Shown here piece after piece: positions 8,434 to 46,702 of a DNA stretch of 64,000 bases; position 1 is the stretch's first letter; each line of letters starts with the position of its first letter. This DNA comes from Candidatus Sulfomarinibacteraceae bacterium (GTDB taxonomy: Bacteria > Acidobacteriota > Thermoanaerobaculia > Thermoanaerobaculales > Sulfomarinibacteraceae). The notes beneath the pieces are model-generated. The model ran no database searches and was not told the origin of the DNA. It worked only from the letters and a program-made list of their open reading frames with translations. The DNA lies in contig CAWCLO010000007.1 in NCBI GenBank assembly GCA_963796455.1, positions 1 to 64,000 on the forward strand, given 5' to 3'. The translations under genes and the position numbers were made by a program.

Positions 8434-8805
8434 TCACGCCGCGCTCGTCAGATCACGCATGAACTGAATAAAATCGTCACGGGTGAAGGGTTTCTGGAGG
8501 AAGCTCCGCGCCCCGGTGGTCAGGCATTCGTGGACCGCCTCCTCCGTTCCGAGCGACGACACGATGACGACGAATGCGTCAGGATCGATCGCCAGGATCC
8601 GGCTCAGGGTCTCGACCCCTGATTGGCCCGGCATGATCAGATCGAGAAGCACAATGTCGGGATCGACCTCGGCAAAACGCTCGACCGCCGCCCGGCCGTC
8701 GCGTTCCGAGGCGACCACATCGAACTCCGAGTCTTCTAGATAGGCCGCGATAATCGTCAGTATCGCGGCGGAGTCATCCACCGTCATGACCCGCCATTTG
8801 GTCAT
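8434..8805 (-). CDS. Single-domain response regulator (CheY-like)
   Basis: VMTVDDS...VLLDLIMPGQSG...VSSLG...FLQKPF. Confidence 0.9.
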   Translation of the reverse strand: MTKWRVMTVDDSAAILTIIAAYLEDSEFDVVASERDGRAAVERFAEVDPDIVLLDLIMPGQSGVETLSRILAIDPDAFVVIVSSLGTEEAVHECLTTGARSFLQKPFTRDDFIQFMRDLTSAA

Positions 8806-10043
8806 CGTCTGTCTCCTACACGACTCTCGAGTTCACCAGTCATTGCTCGCATCCTTGTCTCGACACTCTTCAACCTCTCTTTGAGGAGGTTCTTTTCTAT
8901 CGCCAGGCCGGCCTCGATCATCAGCAGTTCCAATCCATGGATCGATGTGATGGGGTGTCCCCCTGGAAGGTTATCACCATAGAAAATGGCAAGGATCATT
9001 CCATCGACCACAATCGGAATCGCAACCACCGATGGCGGCACGTTTCCGCCCAGTTGCTCGATTAAATGGTTGTTCCAGGCACACTGCTTCAGAGGTCCGT
9101 GATAAGTGGTCATCCGTTCGATGACCTCGAAGAATACCGACGGTTCGTGTTTCGGTATCAAAATCTGACGAATTCGTTTTTCGGTGAGCCGCGAGTCGTC
9201 CTTTTCCTCACCGATCCCGAATTGACCGATGCCCGAAATGCCCTCGGGAGACACGCCGAAGAGAACCCCCCGGTTCACCACCCGGGTCGCGTAGCGCAGG
9301 ATCATGAGCGCGATTTCGGCTGTGAAGGACGCCGGCCGAAGTTGAATTTCGGTCATCAATTTGCGGAGTTCGGCGAGGTCATCGGGCCATTCCGTCAACG
9401 ATTCGTCCGGATCGAGCTTGTAGACGCCCGACCCCGGATCGACCATGTAGTCAATCAATTCTCGAACATTCTGTCCTGCCGATACACCCGACGAGGAATC
9501 CACCTTTGCTTTTGGCATCACCTCACTGGTACTACCGACCTGCTCCACCTTCGTCAAAAGCTCGAGCACGAACTGATCGGTATTGACTCCTTCAGCGAGT
9601 TCGGTCTCACCGTCATCCGATTCCTTTTCTGCCTTCCGCCATGTCGAAAGCGGTTTGAAGCTGAAGAAGCCAGAGTCCCAGTGGAGGAATTGTTCGGTAA
9701 TTTCCTGCAACTGGGCTCGGACTACGTCTTCGAGTGTTTCGTGGGTCAAGGCGCCCATATCAACCAGCACCGCGCCAAGCTTGCTCCACTCGCTGCCGGT
9801 CTTTTGTACCGCCAGCGCCTGGTCGAGAGTCTCCTGGGTCACAAGGTCCTGTTCGAGCAGCACTTTTCCCAGGAATGGGCGCGAGGTCCCGTTGGAGGCG
9901 TGAAAAATTTTGCCATTTCTGAAAAGGAAAACGCCGGTCTCGTCGCCGTGGCTCAGTGTCAGCTTGCCGGATTTCTTGAACAACGAGAGCACGTGGAAAA
10001 GCTCCGTGAGCTGAAGATCTTCGAGACGGCCGACGAGAGCCAT
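8802..10043 (-). CDS. DUF4388 + MshEN-like + GAF-like protein, paralog 1
   Basis: GRLEDLQLTELFHVLSLFKKSGKL; LGKVLLEQDLVTQETLDQALAVQ...KLGAVLVDMG; VAIPIVVDGMILAIFYGD. Confidence 0.8.
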   Translation of the reverse strand: MALVGRLEDLQLTELFHVLSLFKKSGKLTLSHGDETGVFLFRNGKIFHASNGTSRPFLGKVLLEQDLVTQETLDQALAVQKTGSEWSKLGAVLVDMGALTHETLEDVVRAQLQEITEQFLHWDSGFFSFKPLSTWRKAEKESDDGETELAEGVNTDQFVLELLTKVEQVGSTSEVMPKAKVDSSSGVSAGQNVRELIDYMVDPGSGVYKLDPDESLTEWPDDLAELRKLMTEIQLRPASFTAEIALMILRYATRVVNRGVLFGVSPEGISGIGQFGIGEEKDDSRLTEKRIRQILIPKHEPSVFFEVIERMTTYHGPLKQCAWNNHLIEQLGGNVPPSVVAIPIVVDGMILAIFYGDNLPGGHPITSIHGLELLMIEAGLAIEKNLLKERLKSVETRMRAMTGELESRVGDRR

Positions 10044-10177: not shown

Positions 10178-10500
10178 GCTCTAAACGAGGCGCGACAGTC
10201 GCTGCCGCCAGAATTCAGTCCCGTTCTGAGACAACCAAGGGAAGCGTTTTGTATCACCGGATGGGAGAGGCAGGAGGCAGGATTACCGCTGACCAAAACA
10301 GATCGTCACCTGAAGTTTACCACCTGACAACACGTGGTTTACGGGTTGGTTTTTGGCATATCCGGTTCGCGGTGGTCTCGTACCCGTTCCCGATACCGAA
10401 TTGCAGCGGCAGCGACAGTGTCCAGCGTCAGCGACAGGGAGCAGCGGCAGAGAACAGCGATCAGTGTTCAGCGGCAGCGGTCAGGATTCCGGTCGGCGGA

Positions 10501-10640
10501 ATGGCCACCTCCGGGTCGTTCAACGGCAGGGGTAGCCGGTGGGCGGCCGATGTCAAGGACAGGCAGGGTGCAGGGCATCCTTGACATCGGCCACCAAACC
10601 GGCTTGTGGGTATGGGCATGAACGACCCGGAGGTGACCAT
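10501..10640 (+). promoter_or_regulatory. Structured leader sequestering the RBS/start of the four-helix-bundle gene
   Basis: 10501-10522 is the reverse complement of 10619-10640 (21/22), which contains GGAGGT and the start. Inner perfect 15-bp stem 10545-10559/10578-10592. Confidence 0.7.
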
Positions 10641-10992
10641 GTCCAACGCCGCCACGAATACCAACCTCGTTGCCCACTCGAAAGCCCTCGAAGCAGCAGG
10701 AATCGCGATCAATCTCGTGATGAGGGTTCCGGCTCCGCTGAAGTCCATAGCCGATCAGGTGATCCGGTCGGCAAGTTCGGTCCCTGCAAACCTGGCTGAA
10801 GGTCACGGCCGTTTCGGTAGAGACCGGTTGAACCACTGGAGAATCGCGTACGCCTCGGCCAAAGAGGTCGACAGCCACTTGATGCTCCTCGCCCACGCCG
10901 GTGCGATCAGTCGGAATGGTGCCAGTGAAGCAATGAACGCCTTCGATCAAGTCCGTGCCATGACCTGGCGGCTGCTGAACCCGAAGAAGTGA
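10639..10992 (+). CDS. Four helix bundle protein (23S rRNA IVS protein-like / TIGR02436 family)
   Basis: IADQVIRSASSVPANLAEGHGR...HWRIAYASAKEV. GGAGGT RBS before ATG 10639; 117 aa. Confidence 0.88.
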   Translation: MSNAATNTNLVAHSKALEAAGIAINLVMRVPAPLKSIADQVIRSASSVPANLAEGHGRFGRDRLNHWRIAYASAKEVDSHLMLLAHAGAISRNGASEAMNAFDQVRAMTWRLLNPKK

Positions 10993-11122
10993 GTGCAGTC
11001 GCTGCCCCGGCCGCTGATCACTGACGCTGATGACTGAACACTGCCGCTGGCGACTGTTCGCTGTCGACCGTTCTCTGCCGCTGTCTCTGCACGCTATCCG
11101 AGACTCTGTCTTGGACAAGAGT

Positions 11123-11157
11123 GATGCAGGATGCAGGATGCAGGATGCAGGATGCAG
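11123..11157. repeat. (GATGCAG)5 tandem heptamer
   Basis: Five exact copies just after the right end of cassette A. Confidence 0.95.
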
Positions 11158-11238
11158 GAAAATTGTGGAAATACCGCACGGCTTGTCAAAGGCCGTGTCC
11201 GATGAAATTCCTAATTCCGAATTCTTATTTCTCGATCT

Positions 11239-12471
11239 CTAGCTCGTTCCATTTTTGCGGGCGCCGGACTTGAGCCGCTCCTCGATCTTTGCGAGTTTTT
11301 GCGTCAGCAGGTTCTTCTCGATGGCGAGACCCGCCTCGATCATCAATAACTCGAGACCGTGGGTCGAGGTGATCGGGTGTCCGCCGGGAAGGCTGTCGCC
11401 GTAGAAGAGGACCGCGACTCGGCCGTTGACGACGATCGGCGCGACGATCACCTCCGGAGGCACGACGCCGCCGATCTGATCGATCAGATAATTGTTCCAC
11501 GGGCACTGGTCGAGACGACCGTGGTACGAGGACTTGCGTTTGATGACCTCGGCGAAAACCGAATTTTCACTGGTCGGGATCTGCAGGTGCCGGATCCGGT
11601 TGGTCACATCCGGCGAATCATCTCCCGCTCTGCCGATTCCAAATTGTCCGATACCGGTGATCTTGTCTTCCGAGACCCCGAAAAGAACCCCTCGATTGAC
11701 AACACTGGTCGCATATCTGAGGGTCAGCAGCGCAATTTCCCCCGAGCTCGCAAAAGGCCGCAGGTGGATTTCGGTCATCATGGTGCGCAGATCGGCGAGA
11801 TCGGATGGCCACTCGGTGACTTCATCGGTCGGATCGGTTTGGTAGATCGTCGCCGTGGGGTCGACCATATAGTTGAGGAGTTCCCGCGATGTTTCGACCA
11901 CCGAGTCGCTTTCGGTGCGTCCACTCCGCAGACTGGGCACCGGTCGCACCGAGCCGCGGCCACCGACGTCTTCCACCTTGCTCAACAGATCGAGGATAAA
12001 CGGATCGATGCTGACGACCTCGTTGAGCTTTGCCTCTTCGTCATCGATCTCGGTCTCGAATTCTTCATGGGGATCGATGAACTTGAAACTGAAGAAGCCG
12101 GAATCCCACTTCATGAACTCGGTGGCGATCTTTTGCAGTTGTTGGGTCAGCACATTGTGGAGGTCGTTTTCATCAACTGCCCCCATTTCAACCAGAATGG
12201 CTCCGAGTTTCTTGCGCTTGGGGGCCAGACGTTGGGTCGCCAATGCGGCATCCAGAGTCTCGCGTTCGATGAGGTTGTGGCTGAGCAGGAGTTCGCCGAC
12301 TGACGGCGCCGAGTATCCATTGGCCGCGTGATACATTTTTCCGCTGTTGAGGAGGAAAACCCCCTTCTTCTCGCCCCGACTCAGGGTGAGCTCGCCCGAC
12401 TTCCTGAACAGCGACAAGGTCTGCAGGATCTCGTCCAGGCGAAGGTTCTCGAGACGGCCAACAAAAGACAT
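11239..12471 (-). CDS. DUF4388 + MshEN-like + GAF-like protein, paralog 2
   Basis: Collinear with 8802-10043 (shared FVGRLE/LVGRLE, WDSGFFSFK, GIGQFGIG, HGLELLMIEAGLAIEKNLL). Confidence 0.8.
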   Translation of the reverse strand: MSFVGRLENLRLDEILQTLSLFRKSGELTLSRGEKKGVFLLNSGKMYHAANGYSAPSVGELLLSHNLIERETLDAALATQRLAPKRKKLGAILVEMGAVDENDLHNVLTQQLQKIATEFMKWDSGFFSFKFIDPHEEFETEIDDEEAKLNEVVSIDPFILDLLSKVEDVGGRGSVRPVPSLRSGRTESDSVVETSRELLNYMVDPTATIYQTDPTDEVTEWPSDLADLRTMMTEIHLRPFASSGEIALLTLRYATSVVNRGVLFGVSEDKITGIGQFGIGRAGDDSPDVTNRIRHLQIPTSENSVFAEVIKRKSSYHGRLDQCPWNNYLIDQIGGVVPPEVIVAPIVVNGRVAVLFYGDSLPGGHPITSTHGLELLMIEAGLAIEKNLLTQKLAKIEERLKSGARKNGTS

Positions 12472-12647: not shown

Positions 12648-12727
12648 GATTGAGACCAACAGCGTAGGGGGCAATCAAGGAGAGTCATCCCGAATTGGGA
12701 CAGATACTGCCGTGACACGGTTTCTTC

Positions 12728-12761
12728 GAGTTCGGAATTCGGAGTTCGGAGTTCGGAATTC
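12728..12761. repeat. (GARTTCG)~5 tandem heptamer
   Basis: gagttcg gaattcg gagttcg gagttcg gaattc. Confidence 0.9.
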
Positions 12762-12866
12762 CGGGCCCCGAAAACCGGTTCGCCACAGCGTCATCACGGC
12801 GTTCCGGAGAAAATACCTTCTAGAATTTAGGCGATCTGCGGTTTTTTCCCGACGACGGGACCGTCG

Positions 12867-13157
12867 TCAGTCGATAGTGGCCGATTTGGCCGCTACCAGC
12901 TCCATGGCGCGGTTGATGGGGATATGCGCGACGCCGTCGCCTTCGCTGATCCACCCATAACTATTGAGAAGCTCGAGCTGATCCGCGTCCAGCTGCTGCA
13001 GGGCCTGATAGGGCTGCGAGTAGACCTTGCGTTCGAGTTCGGCCCTTTCGGCCTGAAAAAACAGCGCCTGCAGGGCGACAATGATCACAAAAAGCAAGAT
13101 CGCAGAAATGATTCCTACCACCGCGGAGGCCGCCACATTTGGATCGTCATAACGCAT
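12867..13157 (-). CDS. Small membrane protein, ActG-like subunit of alternative complex III
   Basis: One TM helix and LNSYGWISEGDGVAHIPINRAMELV. Follows actF. Confidence 0.7.
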   Translation of the reverse strand: MRYDDPNVAASAVVGIISAILLFVIIVALQALFFQAERAELERKVYSQPYQALQQLDADQLELLNSYGWISEGDGVAHIPINRAMELVAAKSATID

Positions 13158-13171
13158 GGAAACACTCCGTT

Positions 13172-13277
13172 TGAGTTCGGAGTTCGGAGTTCGGAGTTCG
13201 GAATTCCCGACATCCCTCAGCGATCGCCTGGATCGGCGAGCATAACTCCGAATTCCGAATTCCGAATTCCGAATTCA
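13172..13277. repeat. Inverted heptamer arrays forming a hairpin between actF and actG-like
   Basis: (GAGTTCG)4-GAATTC at 13173-13206 faces AACTCCG-(AATTCCG)3-AATTCA at 13244-13277. Confidence 0.9.
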
Positions 13278-13279
13278 TA

Positions 13280-14491
13280 TCAGGCGTTCTCGAACGCAAT
13301 GGACTCTTCGAGCCGGGGGTCCTTTTCCGGGATGACCGAGTGCCGTTTCAATCGGAACAGAACGCCGGCCGACCAGATACCGTTGAGACCGAGAAAGCAC
13401 AGGACATCAAGCAGCCCGAAGCGAGCCACGCCGGGGCTGAACTCGGGGATGACCAGCCAATAGATATTGATCCAACACATGATCAACACATAGCCGCCGG
13501 TGACGGCGAGAAGAGCCGGACGCCTTTTGATCGCACGAGAGACCAGAAGGAGGAAGGGCACCAGAAAGTGTCCGAAGATGAGGATCAAGCTGACATTGAC
13601 CCAACCGCCGGTCTGGCGCTTGAGAAACCAGCCGGTCTCCTCCGGAAGATTCGCGTACCAGATGAGCATGTACTGCGAGAACGCGATGTACGCCCAGAAG
13701 ACGATGAAACCAAAGAGCAGTTTGCCGAAATCGTGATAGTGCTCGACGGTGATCGCGTTGGGAAGGACCTTGCGAAATTGCAGACCGAAGATGACCTTTG
13801 GCATCACCGCTAGAAATGCCACCACCGACACCGCGAAGTAGTACACCCCGAAAATGGTCGAGAACCAGTGCGGATCCAACGACATCAGGAGGTCAAAGGA
13901 GGCGAAATTGATGCTGAGGGCGAAGAGCACCATCCCGGGTGCGCTGAATCGCTCCATGCGGAGGGTGAGCGCAGCGTCACCGCTCGCGTCCTGGGCGATT
14001 GAAGTTCTGTGGAGAAAGGTCGCCAGAACACCCCAGATGAGAAAGTATGCGATGAGACGCACGATAAAGAAGCTCGGGTTCAAAAAAGCGATCTTGCCGG
14101 ACAGGAGAGGATCGTGTGCGGCCGCCGCGGTATCGGTCCAGCTGTAAAGGTGGTTCATTCCCCAGATCACAGGCACAGCGAGCAAGGCCATCAGCCAGAC
14201 ATTGGCGGCGATCGCCTCCGCGATCCTCCGGATGACCACGCTCCATCCCGCCCGCGTGCAATGCTGGAGCAGGACGAAGAACAGCCCCCCCAGCGTGATT
14301 GCGAGGAAAAACGCGAAGCTCACCAGATAGGTCTCGAGCAGGTATTCCATACCGTGATCGGTACGACCGGCCAGGACAAGCGAACCGCCGATGCCGATGA
14401 CCGCCAACACGGCGCACATGATCATCGGGGGTCCCGCAACCCCATCAAGGTGTCGCTTTTCGGTCGTGATGTCCAGTTGATTGCCCTGCAT
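13280..14491 (-). CDS. actF: Alternative complex III membrane subunit ActF
   Basis: Multi-TM protein with AGWSVVIRRIAE, DLLMSLDPHWFSTIFG, HYHDFGK, YIAFSQYMLIWYANLPEE. Confidence 0.88.
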   Translation of the reverse strand: MQGNQLDITTEKRHLDGVAGPPMIMCAVLAVIGIGGSLVLAGRTDHGMEYLLETYLVSFAFFLAITLGGLFFVLLQHCTRAGWSVVIRRIAEAIAANVWLMALLAVPVIWGMNHLYSWTDTAAAAHDPLLSGKIAFLNPSFFIVRLIAYFLIWGVLATFLHRTSIAQDASGDAALTLRMERFSAPGMVLFALSINFASFDLLMSLDPHWFSTIFGVYYFAVSVVAFLAVMPKVIFGLQFRKVLPNAITVEHYHDFGKLLFGFIVFWAYIAFSQYMLIWYANLPEETGWFLKRQTGGWVNVSLILIFGHFLVPFLLLVSRAIKRRPALLAVTGGYVLIMCWINIYWLVIPEFSPGVARFGLLDVLCFLGLNGIWSAGVLFRLKRHSVIPEKDPRLEESIAFENA

Positions 14492-22211: not shown

Positions 22212-22299
22212 AGCGCCGGAGGCGCGACAGAATATCAGCCTGGGGCGTGAGCCCCAGGTTAAGGGGCGTTCCTCAAATCACCAGCCCCGGAGGGGTGGC
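22212..22299. repeat. REP-like palindromic unit
   Basis: AGCGCCGGAGGCGCGACA...CCTGGGGCGTGAGCCCCAGG...AGCCCCGGAGGGGTGGC, a layout resembling REP doublets of Y1/RAYT-associated repeats. Confidence 0.55.
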
Positions 22300-22601
22300 C
22301 GATGTCAAGGATGCCCTGCACCCTGCCTGTCCTTGACATCGGCCGCCCACCGGCTACCCATTCTGTTGAACGACCCGGAGGTGGCCATTTCGCCGACTGG
22401 ACTCCTGACCGCTGACCGCTGTTCCCTGTCGCTGCTCCCTGTTCGCTGATCCCTGCCGCTGACGCTGCCTCCTGTCGCTGTCCCTGCACCCTGGACACTG
22501 TCGCTGCCGCTGCAATTCGGGCACGGACGCGGACGCGGGCACGGGGCAACCGTGATCCGAAAACGCCAAAAACCCACCGCAAAAACCTCGTGTTGTCAGG
22601 T
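22295..22601 (-). mobile_element. Four-helix-bundle cassette, truncated copy C (left arm + leader only)
   Basis: Reverse complement matches 10322-10595, including CCTGACAACACG, GAATTGCAGCGGCAGCGACAGTG and the identical inner hairpin (22297-22344). Confidence 0.75.
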
Positions 22602-22679
22602 AGGAAAAATAAAATGACGATCGTTTCGGACAGCAGTGAAACTCAGACCTCAAAACTCAAATCTGCCGGCCTAAGCAAG

Positions 22680-32442: not shown

Positions 32443-32828
32443 GACTCCTCCGTTGACCTGATTGACGTTAGCACGCACCGAGAGACAGGCAGCAGAAGCG
32501 GCTCAACGACGAGGTCATGAATCACAATCGCTCTCGTTGTTGGGTTCGGCAATCCGCGCCACTGCTGTCCAGAACAAATCACCAGGTTGAGTTCCCCTAT
32601 AGAAAACACAGAGTCTACCGATCGGTAATTGGCATTCCCGGTTCGTGGTTGCCCCTTGCCCGAATTGCAGCGGCAGCGACAGTGCCCAGCGAAGCGACAG
32701 CGACAGTGCCCAGCGACAGCGAACAGTGAGCAGCGACAGGAAACGGCGACAGGAAACGGCGACAGGGACAGCGGTCAGGGACGGCGGTCAGTATCCAGCG
32801 ACAGCGGTCAGGAGTACAGGCGACGAAG

Positions 32829-32967
32829 TGGCCACCTCCGGGTCGTTCCAAGGAAGGGGTAAGCCGGTGGGCGGCCGATGTCAAGGACAGGCAGGGTGCA
32901 GGGCATCCTTGACATCGGCCACCACACCGGCTTGAGGGTATGGGCATGAACGACCCGGAGGTGACCA
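32829..32967 (+). promoter_or_regulatory. Structured leader sequestering the RBS, copy B
   Basis: 32829-32848 pairs with 32948-32967. Inner 15-bp stem 32873-32887/32906-32920. Confidence 0.7.
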
Positions 32968-33320
32968 TGTCCAACGCCGCCACTAACCCCAACCTCGTTG
33001 CCCACTCGAAAGCTCTCGAAGCAGCCGGGATCGCGATCAAGCTTGTTATGAGGGTTCCTGCTCCGCTGAAGTCCATAGCCGATCAGGTGATCCGGTCGGC
33101 AAGTTCTGTCCCTGCTAACTTGGCGGAAGGGCACGGCCGAGTCGGTAAAAACCGGTCGAACCACTGGAGAATCGCCTACGCCTCGGCAAAAGAGGTCGAC
33201 AGCCACTTGCTACTCCTCGCCCACGCCGGGGCAATCAGCCCGAACCGAGCCAGTGAAGCGATGATGGCCTTCGATCAGGTCCGTGCCATGACCTGGCGGC
33301 TGTTGAACCCGAAAGTGTGA
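32967..33320 (+). CDS. Four helix bundle protein, copy 2
   Basis: 117 aa; 11 differences from 10639-10992 by manual alignment. Confidence 0.88.
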   Translation: MSNAATNPNLVAHSKALEAAGIAIKLVMRVPAPLKSIADQVIRSASSVPANLAEGHGRVGKNRSNHWRIAYASAKEVDSHLLLLAHAGAISPNRASEAMMAFDQVRAMTWRLLNPKV

Positions 33321-33522
33321 GCGCTGTTCGCTGCCGCTGATGACTGAACGCTGCCCCTGACTACTGTTCGCTGTTGCTGTCGCTGTCCCTGAACGCTGTC
33401 AGAGATTCTGTCTTGGACTGGAGTGCATCTGGGTATCCGATACCGATAGCGATTGCGATAGCGATCGGAATTTGGGATTCAAAAAACTCTTCAGATTCGC
33501 CGCCTGTTACACTCGCTCCAAC

Positions 33523-34687: not shown

Positions 34688-34903
34688 GACACGGGCCGGG
34701 CGACAGCGACAGAATTCAGCGGCAGCGGCAGGGAGCAGCAAACAGGGGAGAATCAGCAATCAGTGTGCAGCGGCAGCGATCAGGAGCACAGGCGACGAAG
34801 TAGCCACATCCGGGTCGTTCAACGGAAGGAATAGCCAGTGGGAGGCCGCTGATGACTGAACGCTGACGCTGCCCCTGAACACTGTCCGAGACACTGTCTT
34901 GGA
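34688..34903 (+). mobile_element. Four-helix-bundle cassette, empty copy D (left arm joined to right arm)
   Basis: Left arm and anti-RBS segment (34801-34821) are fused at GGCCG (34844-34848) to CTGATGACTGAACGCTG...GAGACACTGTCTTGGA. Confidence 0.75.
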
Positions 34904-35306
34904 AGAGGGTGTGAATAGATGAAGGTTGCGCTCCCGACGCGATAACACAACTGCAAGGCAGAATCGGTGTGCCGTAGGCGCACCGGTCGGTGGGAAGCGT
35001 GGCGGCGACGAGCGCTCGCGCTCGGAGACGGCACGCTTCTCACCGGCGACAGGCGATCGAACGATCGCCTGTTGTTCTGCCGCCAAGCATGTCAACACCG
35101 TAAAATCTCGCCAACCGCGCCTGTGCGACTTTGCGTTCTTGGCGTTCTTTGCGGTTCATTCTGTGTTCTTCTGTGTGTTCTGTGTGTCCGGCTTCGTCGC
35201 TCCGCGGCAAAGCCGTGAGGAGCCAGCTTTGCGTAGTGGCTTGGTGCTTTGGCGCCTTCGTGGTTGCGACGCCAATTTATCTGCGACGATCTGCGGTCGT
35301 GAGATG

Positions 35307-40248: not shown

Positions 40249-40580
40249 TCGGATAGCGAACAGGGACAGCGAATGGGATGGAGGGGTCGAGAGGCGGAAA
40301 TCAGCCATCAGCGTAGTGATTTCAGCGGCCATGGGACAGCGACCAGCATGTCACTTCTGGCGGAGCTCCGGCCTTTGTGGTGCGGCCGTCTCGGCCTGAA
40401 CGGTGAAGCCGGAAGGGGCGCAGCCACAACGGCTGTTCCTATGAGATGAACCACCCGGAGGAGGCTACTTCAGGTCGCCAGGACTCCTGATCGCTGCCGC
40501 CGAGCAGCGCGAGTCGCTGAACCGGGTCGCTGCTCCACTGTCGCTGCCGAAGGACGCTGTCGCCGCAGGATGACAATTCT
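40249..40580 (-). mobile_element. Four-helix-bundle cassette, degenerate gene-less copy E
   Basis: Minus strand has GGCAGCGATCAGGAGTCC...GTAGCCTCCTCCGGGTGGTTCA (anti-RBS-like), later AGAAGTGA...GGCCGCTGAAATCACTACGCTGATG...CGCTATCCGA, like the 3' end of copy A. Confidence 0.55.
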
Positions 40581-40794
40581 GGAAAGGGAGCGGAATCGGG
40601 TCAAAGAGCCAACCGCGGCAACAGGATCATGTCAGAGCGGTGCGATTCGAAAACCACGAGATGCAGTTGCAACTAACATCAGGTGACGATCTGTTATGGA
40701 CTAGCAGTAATGCTGGAGATGAACAGTGGAATCCATACGTCGATTCCATTTCCGATCCCGATCCCGTTCCCGAATGGGCGGAGGGGCGAAAGGG

Positions 40795-40861
40795 AGAACC
40801 GCACCTGAAGCCGCGTTCGTAATAAGGAGCGGGTATTCCTAATTCCTAATTCCTAATTCCT
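40795..40861 (+). repeat. 40-nt conserved head + (AATTCCT)n array
   Basis: AGAACCGCAC-N10-GTTCGTAATAAGGAGCGGGT, then ATTCCT(AATTCCT)3. Confidence 0.8.
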
Positions 40862-43808: not shown

Positions 43809-43960
43809 CCGTACTTGATGCATGGTTCGTGATAAGGAACGGGTCTCCTCTGCTCCTCTGCTCCTCTGCTCCTCTGCTCCTCTGCTCCTCTGCTCCTCTG
43901 CTCCTCTGCTCCTCTGCTCCTCTGCTCCTCTGCTCCTCTGCTCCTCTGCTCCTCTGCTCC
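43805..43960 (+). repeat. 40-nt conserved head + (CTCCTCTG)14 array
   Basis: Head 43805-43844; 14 exact octamers 43845-43956. Confidence 0.92.
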
Positions 43961-46154: not shown

Positions 46155-46277
46155 GATGTCATCCTGAGCGCAGCCCCGCAGGGGCGTAGTCGAAGGATCT
46201 ATGGGATGGCCTGCTAAGACCTCGCGACCGCAGATCCTTCGACTTCGCGCCAAAGGCGCTTCGCTCAGGATGACATC
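46155..46277. repeat. Branched palindromic element (GTCATCCTGAGCG...CGCTCAGGATGAC type)
   Basis: 16-bp perfect terminal inverted repeat plus inner GTCGAAGGATCT/AGATCCTTCGAC. Confidence 0.85.
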
Positions 46278-46503: not shown

Positions 46504-46702
46504 AGAACCGTACCCGAAACGTCGTTCGTGATAAGGGCAGAGTCTCCTCTGCTCCTCTGCTCCTCTGCTCCTCTGCTCCTCTGCTCCTCTGCTCCTCTGC
46601 TCCTCTGCTCCTCTGCTCCTCTGCTCCTCTGCTCCTCTGCTCCTCTGCTCCTCTCTCTGCTCCTCTGCTCCTCTGCTCCTCTGCTCCTCTGCTCCTCTGC
46701 TC
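46504..46702 (+). repeat. 40-nt conserved head + (CTCCTCTG)~19 array
   Basis: Head 46504-46543; 13 units, one 12-nt variant, 5 units. Abuts the stop of the convergent gene. Confidence 0.92.

Follow-up and report, generated by a model that had tools for sequence, protein, structure and literature searches.

The two ~0.8-kb repeats within the 64,000-nucleotide stretch analyzed here (the window, positions 1–64000 of contig C7 of the assembly designated G000) are copies of one high-copy transposon. We conclude that this cassette is very probably a non-autonomous element with IS4-type terminal repeats and 9-bp target duplications, dispersed by IS4-mediated transposition; it is likely a mobile insertion cassette (MIC) mobilized in trans, rather than a transposase-free unit or one that resembles an rRNA intervening sequence (IVS). 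A mobile, multi-copy intergenic cassette without its own transposase had already been recognized in a sequence-only reading, and a genome-wide count agreed with it: G000 (90.5% complete, 10 contigs) carries 231 loci in total, amounting to 107 kb or 2.1% of the assembly, with 59 near-full copies of the gene and 70 matches to PF05635. Among named genomes, those of Ca. Sulfomarinibacteraceae, Holophagae and Thermoanaerobaculia are nearest to G000, and its host is therefore likely an acidobacterium from this group. Cassette matches were found in 15 of 18 genomes of the same genus, and weak matches in 2 of 12 genomes of another family. As in MICs, the cassette contains no transposase gene, and the PF05635 gene is its sole gene with a family match. 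Its parts, and its relatives in the window, are listed in Table 1. The boundaries first proposed for copies A and B (10322–11115 and 32605–33417) lie inside the true ends given there, and the three gene-less relatives noticed earlier were all recovered.

Table 1. Features of copy A, other copies in the window and divergent family genes (window positions unless a contig is given)
Feature	Position	Strand	Remark
Copy A, full element	10284–11123	+	flanks match at 8/9
Left target-duplication copy, AGGCAGGAT	10275..10283	+	8/9 identical to right copy
Left terminal inverted repeat, degenerate in copy A	10284..10302	+	downstream end (IRR) of IS4-family element
Subterminal segment, possible IS4 3'-end remnant	10303..10375	+	alignment score 50.5 vs shuffled mean 30.4, max 50.0; weak
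Left arm, degenerate CAGCGR repeats	10396..10490	+	inner limit approximate
Stem P1, 5' strand (anti-ribosome-site arm)	10501..10522	+
Inner hairpin P2, arms 10534–10559 and 10578–10604; most conserved part of the element	10534..10604	+	14/27 pairs changed on both sides
Stem P1, 3' strand	10619..10640	+	includes GGAGG ribosome site 10629–10633 and start codon bases 1–2
Four-helix-bundle gene, 117 aa, PF05635/TIGR02436	10639..10992	+	start inferred from GGAGG spacing
Right arm, degenerate YCGCTG repeats	10993..11096	+
Right terminal inverted repeat, IS4 upstream end (IRL)	11105..11123	+	CACTCTTGTCCAAGAC start common to L049, L088 and L089 IRLs
Right target duplication (11124–11132) continuing into (GATGCAG)n heptamer array	11124..11158	+
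Copy B, full element (gene 32967–33320)	32560..33425	+	flanks match at 5/9 only
Gene-less relative: left end, arm, P1 5' strand, near-perfect P2; without gene or right end	22287..22638	-
Gene-less relative: arm, P1 5' strand, right end	34700..34911	+
Degenerate gene-less relative, REP-core subfamily	40250..40709	-	limits approximate
Four divergent single-copy PF05635 genes (L153–L156)	G000:C4:1278094-1278408, C1:983149-983445, C9:2726-3031, C10:733004-733315

The proteins of copies A and B are identical at 106 of 117 residues, as first noted, and both belong to PF05635/TIGR02436. Members of this common family, whose function is unknown, have been described from rRNA intervening sequences, and the family is structurally related to the DGR accessory protein Avd. 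A structure model based on an alignment displayed four helices (pLDDT 93.6; a single-sequence model with a pLDDT of 48 was discarded) and matched Xcc0516 (2GSC) and BT_0352 (2RLD) with TM values of 0.79–0.83 and E-values down to 1.8e-5. Its match to Avd (4DWL) had a TM of 0.79, 8% identity and an E-value of 0.084, in agreement with the earlier placement of the protein in the IVS-protein family with an Avd fold.

Alignment of flanks delimited imperfect terminal inverted repeats of 19 bp, CACTGCTGTCCAAAACAGA on the left and CACTCTTGTCCAAGACAGA (read inward) on the right, which are complementary at a mean of 14.1 of 19 positions in 31 full elements; the right-end motif is conserved, as had been claimed. 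At the chosen threshold, profile scans for the two ends yielded 194 and 232 hits, compared with 2 and 0 in a reversed-genome control, and gave 81 left/right pairs once 12 pairs of same-type ends had been excluded. A 9-bp direct duplication was exact in 21 of these 81 pairs (shuffled mean 1.9, maximum 7), and no signal was observed in the same pairs for lengths of 3–8 and 10–15 bp. The earlier statement that target duplications are lacking accordingly fails: copy A lies between AGGCAGGAT and ATGCAGGAT, identical at 8 of 9 positions, although the flanks of copy B agree at only 5. For the analysis of heptamer arrays we used 80 elements, one 5.9-kb pair having been dropped. At the 25 sites outside such arrays, the flanks matched at a mean of 6.56 of 9 positions (one exactly), compared with 2.87 after shuffling (maximum 4.08); a 2-bp duplication mimicked by arrays is therefore excluded, and the length scan together with this match rules out duplications of 2 or 7 bp. 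The 9-bp duplication is real, though often old. However, the flanks of 12 of the 80 elements fit better in inverted than in direct orientation, and 28 of the 59 gene copies lack one or both recognizable ends, which counts against dispersal by IS4.

A search for DDE_Tnp_1 proteins across the genus led to a candidate partner, L012, an IS4 transposase (NF033592, E = 1.4e-74) with the full Y(2)R(3)E(6)K motif. The family consensus of the left end of the cassette, CACTGCTGTCCAAAACAG, is identical to the IRR of L012 at 18 of 18 bases, the right end matches the upstream ends of the close relatives of L012 (22 of 24 bases for the IRL of L049), and the asymmetry between the two ends is the same as that across the IS4 clade. 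Because the left end thus corresponds to the IS4 downstream end and the right end to the upstream one, the cargo gene runs antisense to the lost transposase. Exact 9-bp duplications were found in 15 of 30 class-level loci related to L012. However, only 7 of 54 metagenomic IS4 loci had exact duplications, and L012 itself lacks a direct duplication and is flanked by inverted arrays; both observations count against the assignment. No cognate IS4 transposase was found in G000, given its 90.5% completeness, by searches with PF14706, PF00872, PF01610 and the L012 protein (0 hits), and we infer that the helper IS4 is either unassembled or lost from this genome. As partners we rejected the single PF01609 (DDE_Tnp_1) element of G000, whose ends are unrelated, and the IS1380-type elements L013, L017 and L021, which match the motif partially and at one end only.

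The same cargo also travels between ends of a second type. Of 284 related loci, we considered the 80 closest. IS4-type ends flank 32 of these on both sides, 15 with exact 9-bp duplications, and ISL3-type ends flank 31 on both sides, with 8-bp duplications that are exact in 8 cases and identical at 7 of 8 positions or better in 20. Autonomous ISL3 elements of the genus bear the same ends as the ISL3-ended cassettes. Within G000, 26 paired elements make up a gene-less subfamily that shares one replacement, which we take to be REP-like, and 9 of the 26 have exact duplications. Other cargo is present in three elements, and in four the core is inverted between the arms. Because gene-less versions and versions with other cargo have been amplified, the gene is dispensable in cis for IS4 movement. 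No relatives of the cassette were found in viral contigs.

Several related repeats were seen in G000. The same IS4 ends surround a long GATGTCATCCTGAGCG palindrome at G000:C4:24631-25197, C4:114700-115252 and C5:1335-2018, and a free copy of this palindrome lies at window positions 46155–46277. Three copies (G000:C1:367921, C3:97862 and C10:438034) share an internal deletion at a 7-bp microhomology, which was either amplified or recurrent. A second dispersed family of ~0.9 kb, with REP-like hairpins and 8–10-bp repeats but no clear open reading frame (ORF), is represented by G000:C1:620254-621148 and ~20 similar loci.

Insertions strongly favor heptamer arrays. A flank with a period of 7 was found for 64% of elements, compared with 0.9% of random sites. 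An end was present at 83 of the 169 GAT-type arrays but at 2 of the 129 AATT-type arrays. We rejected the possibility that arrays are, as a general rule, footprints of repeated duplication, because heptamer arrays occur beside both the 8-bp and the 9-bp versions; a GAT-type array without an element (L259) also argues against it. Separately, autonomous ISL3 (L035:100-1540) and IS4 (L012:1000-2450) elements were observed between inverted heptamer arrays, with 18 identical bases in L035, and fold-back copying or recombination between copies could account for such flanks.

Copies A and B are both intergenic. At site B, both flanking genes are kept in 11 of 13 relative loci and the gene is present in none of these 11, whereas at site A both are kept in 1 of 13, with a spacer of 232 bp. 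The comparison of orthologous sites therefore bore out the absence of the gene from site B in relatives, but not exact empty sites, for which these relatives, with flanking genes ~65–73% identical, are too distant. In G000, convergent spacers hold 26 of 59 gene copies, compared with 18% of all spacers; the corresponding count in relatives is 33 of 77 (3 of 80 loci without both neighbors were dropped, and gene calls came from an unvalidated hexamer model). An asymmetry between sense and antisense copies in tandem spacers of G000 (6 versus 17, P = 0.035) was discarded because it was not replicated in relatives (14 versus 16). No sigma-70 promoter or terminator was found, and we accordingly do not claim the TTGACA in P2 as a –35 box; an Rfam scan gave no family at the gathering score. 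Small shares of four sequencing runs contained 0 pieces across the site and 0 listed head-to-tail joints.

Individual sites displayed further peculiarities. The spacer orthologous to site B in another genome (L257:971-1477, G012) contains an independent IS4-ended element that is oppositely oriented, carries REP-like cargo and has an 8/9 duplication, and this spacer accumulates different repeats in different species. Copy A separates tandem DUF4388 paralogues (window 8802–10043 and 11239–12471), of which most relative loci showed one only. At G000:C7:223613-226277, a cassette copy is in frame with an upstream ORF, resulting in an 895-codon open frame with a C-terminal four-helix bundle.

Upstream of the gene lies a nested hairpin, in which the 22-bp stem P1 pairs with the GGAGG site and the start codon and encloses the 27-bp stem P2. 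In an alignment of 28 sequences (4 of 32 aligned poorly and were removed), 95.1% of cells were paired and 19 of 49 pairs had changed on both sides, compared with 5.6 after shuffling, although the sequences are related and the changes mostly Watson–Crick; pairing in slid controls of the P1/P2 alignment was at most 43%. P1 is predicted to occlude both the ribosome site and the start codon and would thereby silence the gene in read-through transcripts. The complementarity of the CAGCGR left arm and the YCGCTG right arm, noted from the outset, was confirmed. Arm limits could be set in 41 of the 59 copies, and these had a mean duplex energy of –108.9 kcal/mol compared with –63.6 kcal/mol for shuffled arms. 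The minus strand gave a comparable value (–107.3), and pairing between the two arms of one copy was no stronger than pairing with the arms of another copy (P = 0.41).

The core of the element, namely arms, P1/P2 and gene, has a history that differs from that of its shell. Gene copies of G000 displayed a pS of 0.27 and a pN of 0.045 (dN/dS 0.14), 58 of the 59 near-full genes are free of stop codons, and the 58 G000 copies form one clade with respect to relatives (support 0.94); dN/dS was 0.12–0.24 in four other genomes, for copies chosen as top hits. One mispaired element was dropped before diversity, pairing and distance counts. Diversity was 0.01–0.03 in P2 compared with 0.11–0.16 in the terminal repeats, and IS4 transposition alone therefore leaves the conservation of P2 and the protein above that of the terminal repeats unexplained. 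P2 is 96–100% identical to the consensus in 57 of 59 copies regardless of end state. The distance of the shell to its consensus ranges from 0 to 0.28 and is overdispersed (index 5.8), whereas that at fourfold sites is uniform (index 1.03) and uncorrelated with shell distance (rho –0.08; pairwise r 0.015). The four-gamete test was violated in 81–99% of cases, and linkage was lost within 40 bp. The genealogy of the core is thus uncoupled from the age of the shell. We infer that this reflects recombination between copies, in which cores under purifying selection move between shells that differ in age, although recurrent mutation could supply part of the pattern.

It is possible, if somewhat doubtful, that selection among the elements as donors keeps the core intact. 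One form of this explanation, which we regard as similarly tentative, is that the core is itself selfish: its Avd-fold protein would bind the RNA or single-stranded DNA (ssDNA) of its own hairpin, intact copies would act as donors, overwriting or filling other sites with such arms, and the IS ends would be a captured second vehicle. Such a process would add to the IS4 explanation and not replace it. The near-invariance of P2 whatever the state of the ends, the decoupling of fourfold-site from shell distance, the loss of linkage and the occurrence of one core under two unrelated IS end types are all in its favor, as are the divergent family genes described below. However, gene-less copies were amplified too, truncated gene copies do not share a fixed inner boundary and no gene matching the reverse transcriptase family RVT_1 (PF00078) was found in the G000 assembly, which is incomplete. 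Counts of private and shared variants (38/136 synonymous and 75/60 non-synonymous) were discarded as proof of selection at the element level, because the contrast is confounded by fourfold saturation, 65% of possible fourfold alleles being already present.

Alternatively, selection at the level of the host might keep gene and hairpin intact, a proposal that we consider possible and about as doubtful as donor selection. Either a broken hairpin would allow a harmful protein to be made, or an oligomer on which the cell relies (for example, in defense) would be poisoned by faulty subunits, with alleles being reshuffled between copies by unbiased gene conversion. In favor of this, depletion extends to private variants, with 0.005 per site per copy at second codon positions and in P2; fourfold sites had 0.016 and the shell 0.032, counts that assembly error may inflate. 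The near-absence of stop codons and the preference for convergent spacers point the same way, but such a preference is expected of any insertion. Moreover, genomes of the genus have anywhere from 0 to dozens of matches, deleted or broken copies are abundant, and P2 is equally conserved in 12 broken copies (0.98) and 58 full ones (0.99).

Four divergent single-copy genes of the family in G000 (L153–L156; Table 1) bear on the origin of the core. Each of the four lies between inverted arrays of a different 6–8-bp unit, with no IS-type ends seen by eye, and the units are scattered genome-wide: three of them form 40, 13 and 95 dispersed arrays, compared with 0, 0 and 5 in a reversed control, which was uninformative for the fourth. 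The third unit forms 11 face-to-face array pairs, all in native polarity. The CAGCGR arms resemble a fifth such set, which suggests that the core was a repeat-armed cassette before it was captured by IS ends. A broader proposal, which we think unlikely, is that PF05635 genes with inverted short-repeat arms constitute a selfish class of their own, in which the Avd-fold protein would recognize its hairpin and drive the copying of intact cores to other arm-bearing sites without a transposase, integrase or reverse transcriptase of its own. The heptamer and octamer arrays of the genome would be seeded in this way, and IS4 and ISL3 ends would here have been captured as a second vehicle.

Other repeat-bounded loci were noticed in the window. 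A 96-codon ORF without a Pfam match lies between face-to-face GGAGTTC/GAATTCC arrays (12725–13280) and is possibly another repeat-armed cassette. Long (CTCTGCTC)n arrays, with the unit found in the arms of L153, occupy 43840–43960 and 46540–46690; a shared stretch of ~60 bp precedes them and is present also at 40772–40834.

The sequence-only reading had instead proposed an IVS-like unit, free of any transposase, whose spread takes place at the level of RNA or ssDNA and which RNase III removes from transcripts. Long RNA stems, if transcribed, would be RNase III substrates, and both copies have strong whole-element RNA folds (z = –4.1 for copy A and –6.0 for copy B). The family link to 23S IVS proteins (PMC4990558) is also in favor of this model. 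We nevertheless regard it as very improbable, and this route of dispersal as largely refuted, because the IS4 and ISL3 ends carry duplications typical of their families and the predicted signatures of RNA pairing fail. While the internal hairpin (10501–10640) does covary, the outer stem does not, since the outer ends of 31 full elements pair with their own partner at 7.16 of 9 positions compared with 7.07 after shuffling (P = 0.10); in addition, ACGTGGTTT, described as an outermost end, lies ~49 bp inside the left end and is unpaired with AGACTCTGT in the predicted fold of copy A. The supposed richness in G-U pairs was not observed either, because G-U does not exceed A-C on the sense strand (83 versus 109 in P1, 6 versus 58 in P2), and an RNA rather than DNA level is thus unsupported. 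As a side observation, mismatches in P2 are mostly A-C on the sense strand, that is, G-U on the antisense strand, in counts that are non-independent. Only 6 of the 59 gene copies in G000, and 14 of the 77 in relatives, point the same way as their neighbors in a tandem run, and this rarity in co-directional operons, where a self-removing stem would pay off, also argues against the model, as does the absence of any PF05635 match from the rRNA region of contig C10 (located by primer motifs). Of the enzymes envisaged to act in trans, G000 has six Y1_Tnp genes but no RVT_1 match. The core may still have a second activity at the RNA or ssDNA level.

Under IS4-mediated dispersal, an IS4-family transposase supplied in trans would pair both ends and excise the cassette, which would reinsert with a 9-bp stagger at AT-N5-AT targets, as expected from what is known of the family. 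GAT arrays would supply such targets in harmless spacers. After insertion, the ends would decay, the arms would promote deletions and inversions, and cores would recombine between copies; the cargo likely stays intact through continued exchange between copies in which intact versions are favored, while P1 would hold the gene off in read-through transcripts. This mechanism of dispersal is ordinary; what a specialist would not expect is the conservation of the core inside decayed shells. These results place PF05635 in a defined, high-copy mobile cassette with a candidate transposase and a covarying hairpin, and make two old questions testable, namely how PF05635 genes spread and whether the protein aids its own spread. 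Searches of the open-access literature gave no description of an IS-ended PF05635 cassette.

We compared the cassette with known systems. Its protein shares the fold of Avd, but with the low identity given above and no reverse transcriptase found, it is not a DGR as described in PMC10053308. REP/REPIN sequences are moved by HUH enzymes (Y1 transposases) and lack terminal repeats and long duplications, whereas the cassette has both, with duplications of 9 bp; hairpins of REP-like type are found among its cargoes. The ORF-bearing 23S IVSs of Coxiella burnetii and Leptospira (S23p/PF05635) share with it the protein family and a gene in the loop of an inverted repeat. According to PMC4990558, the C. 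burnetii protein is apparently not made in vivo and its ORF is reported to be decaying; in contrast, the cassette is intergenic, has IS ends and duplications, and carries a gene under purifying selection. Among IS4 subgroups, IS4Sa has ends that start with CA and have T at position 9, with duplications of 8–10 bp (Table 1 of PMC2266710). The ends and duplications of the cassette fit this pattern, as does the YREK motif of the partner L012, although the cassette lacks a transposase and the assignment is a tentative one, drawn from the pattern of ends and duplications. The closest likeness is to MICs and MITEs, for example, MIC231 of Bacillus cereus, in which IS231 (IS4-family) ends surround a passenger gene. 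MICs and MITEs have IS-derived ends, lack their own transposase and are moved by a cognate transposase in trans, as stated in PMC3129680 and PMC6542083. The cassette likewise has IS-derived ends shared with an autonomous IS, duplications of the family length, a passenger and no transposase, and would likewise be moved in trans, although no cognate transposase was found in the 90.5%-complete assembly. Compared with known MICs, however, it has 59 gene-bearing copies in one chromosome, the PF05635 passenger gene brings a covarying hairpin of its own, and this cargo rides IS4 or ISL3 ends with a strong preference for heptamer arrays.
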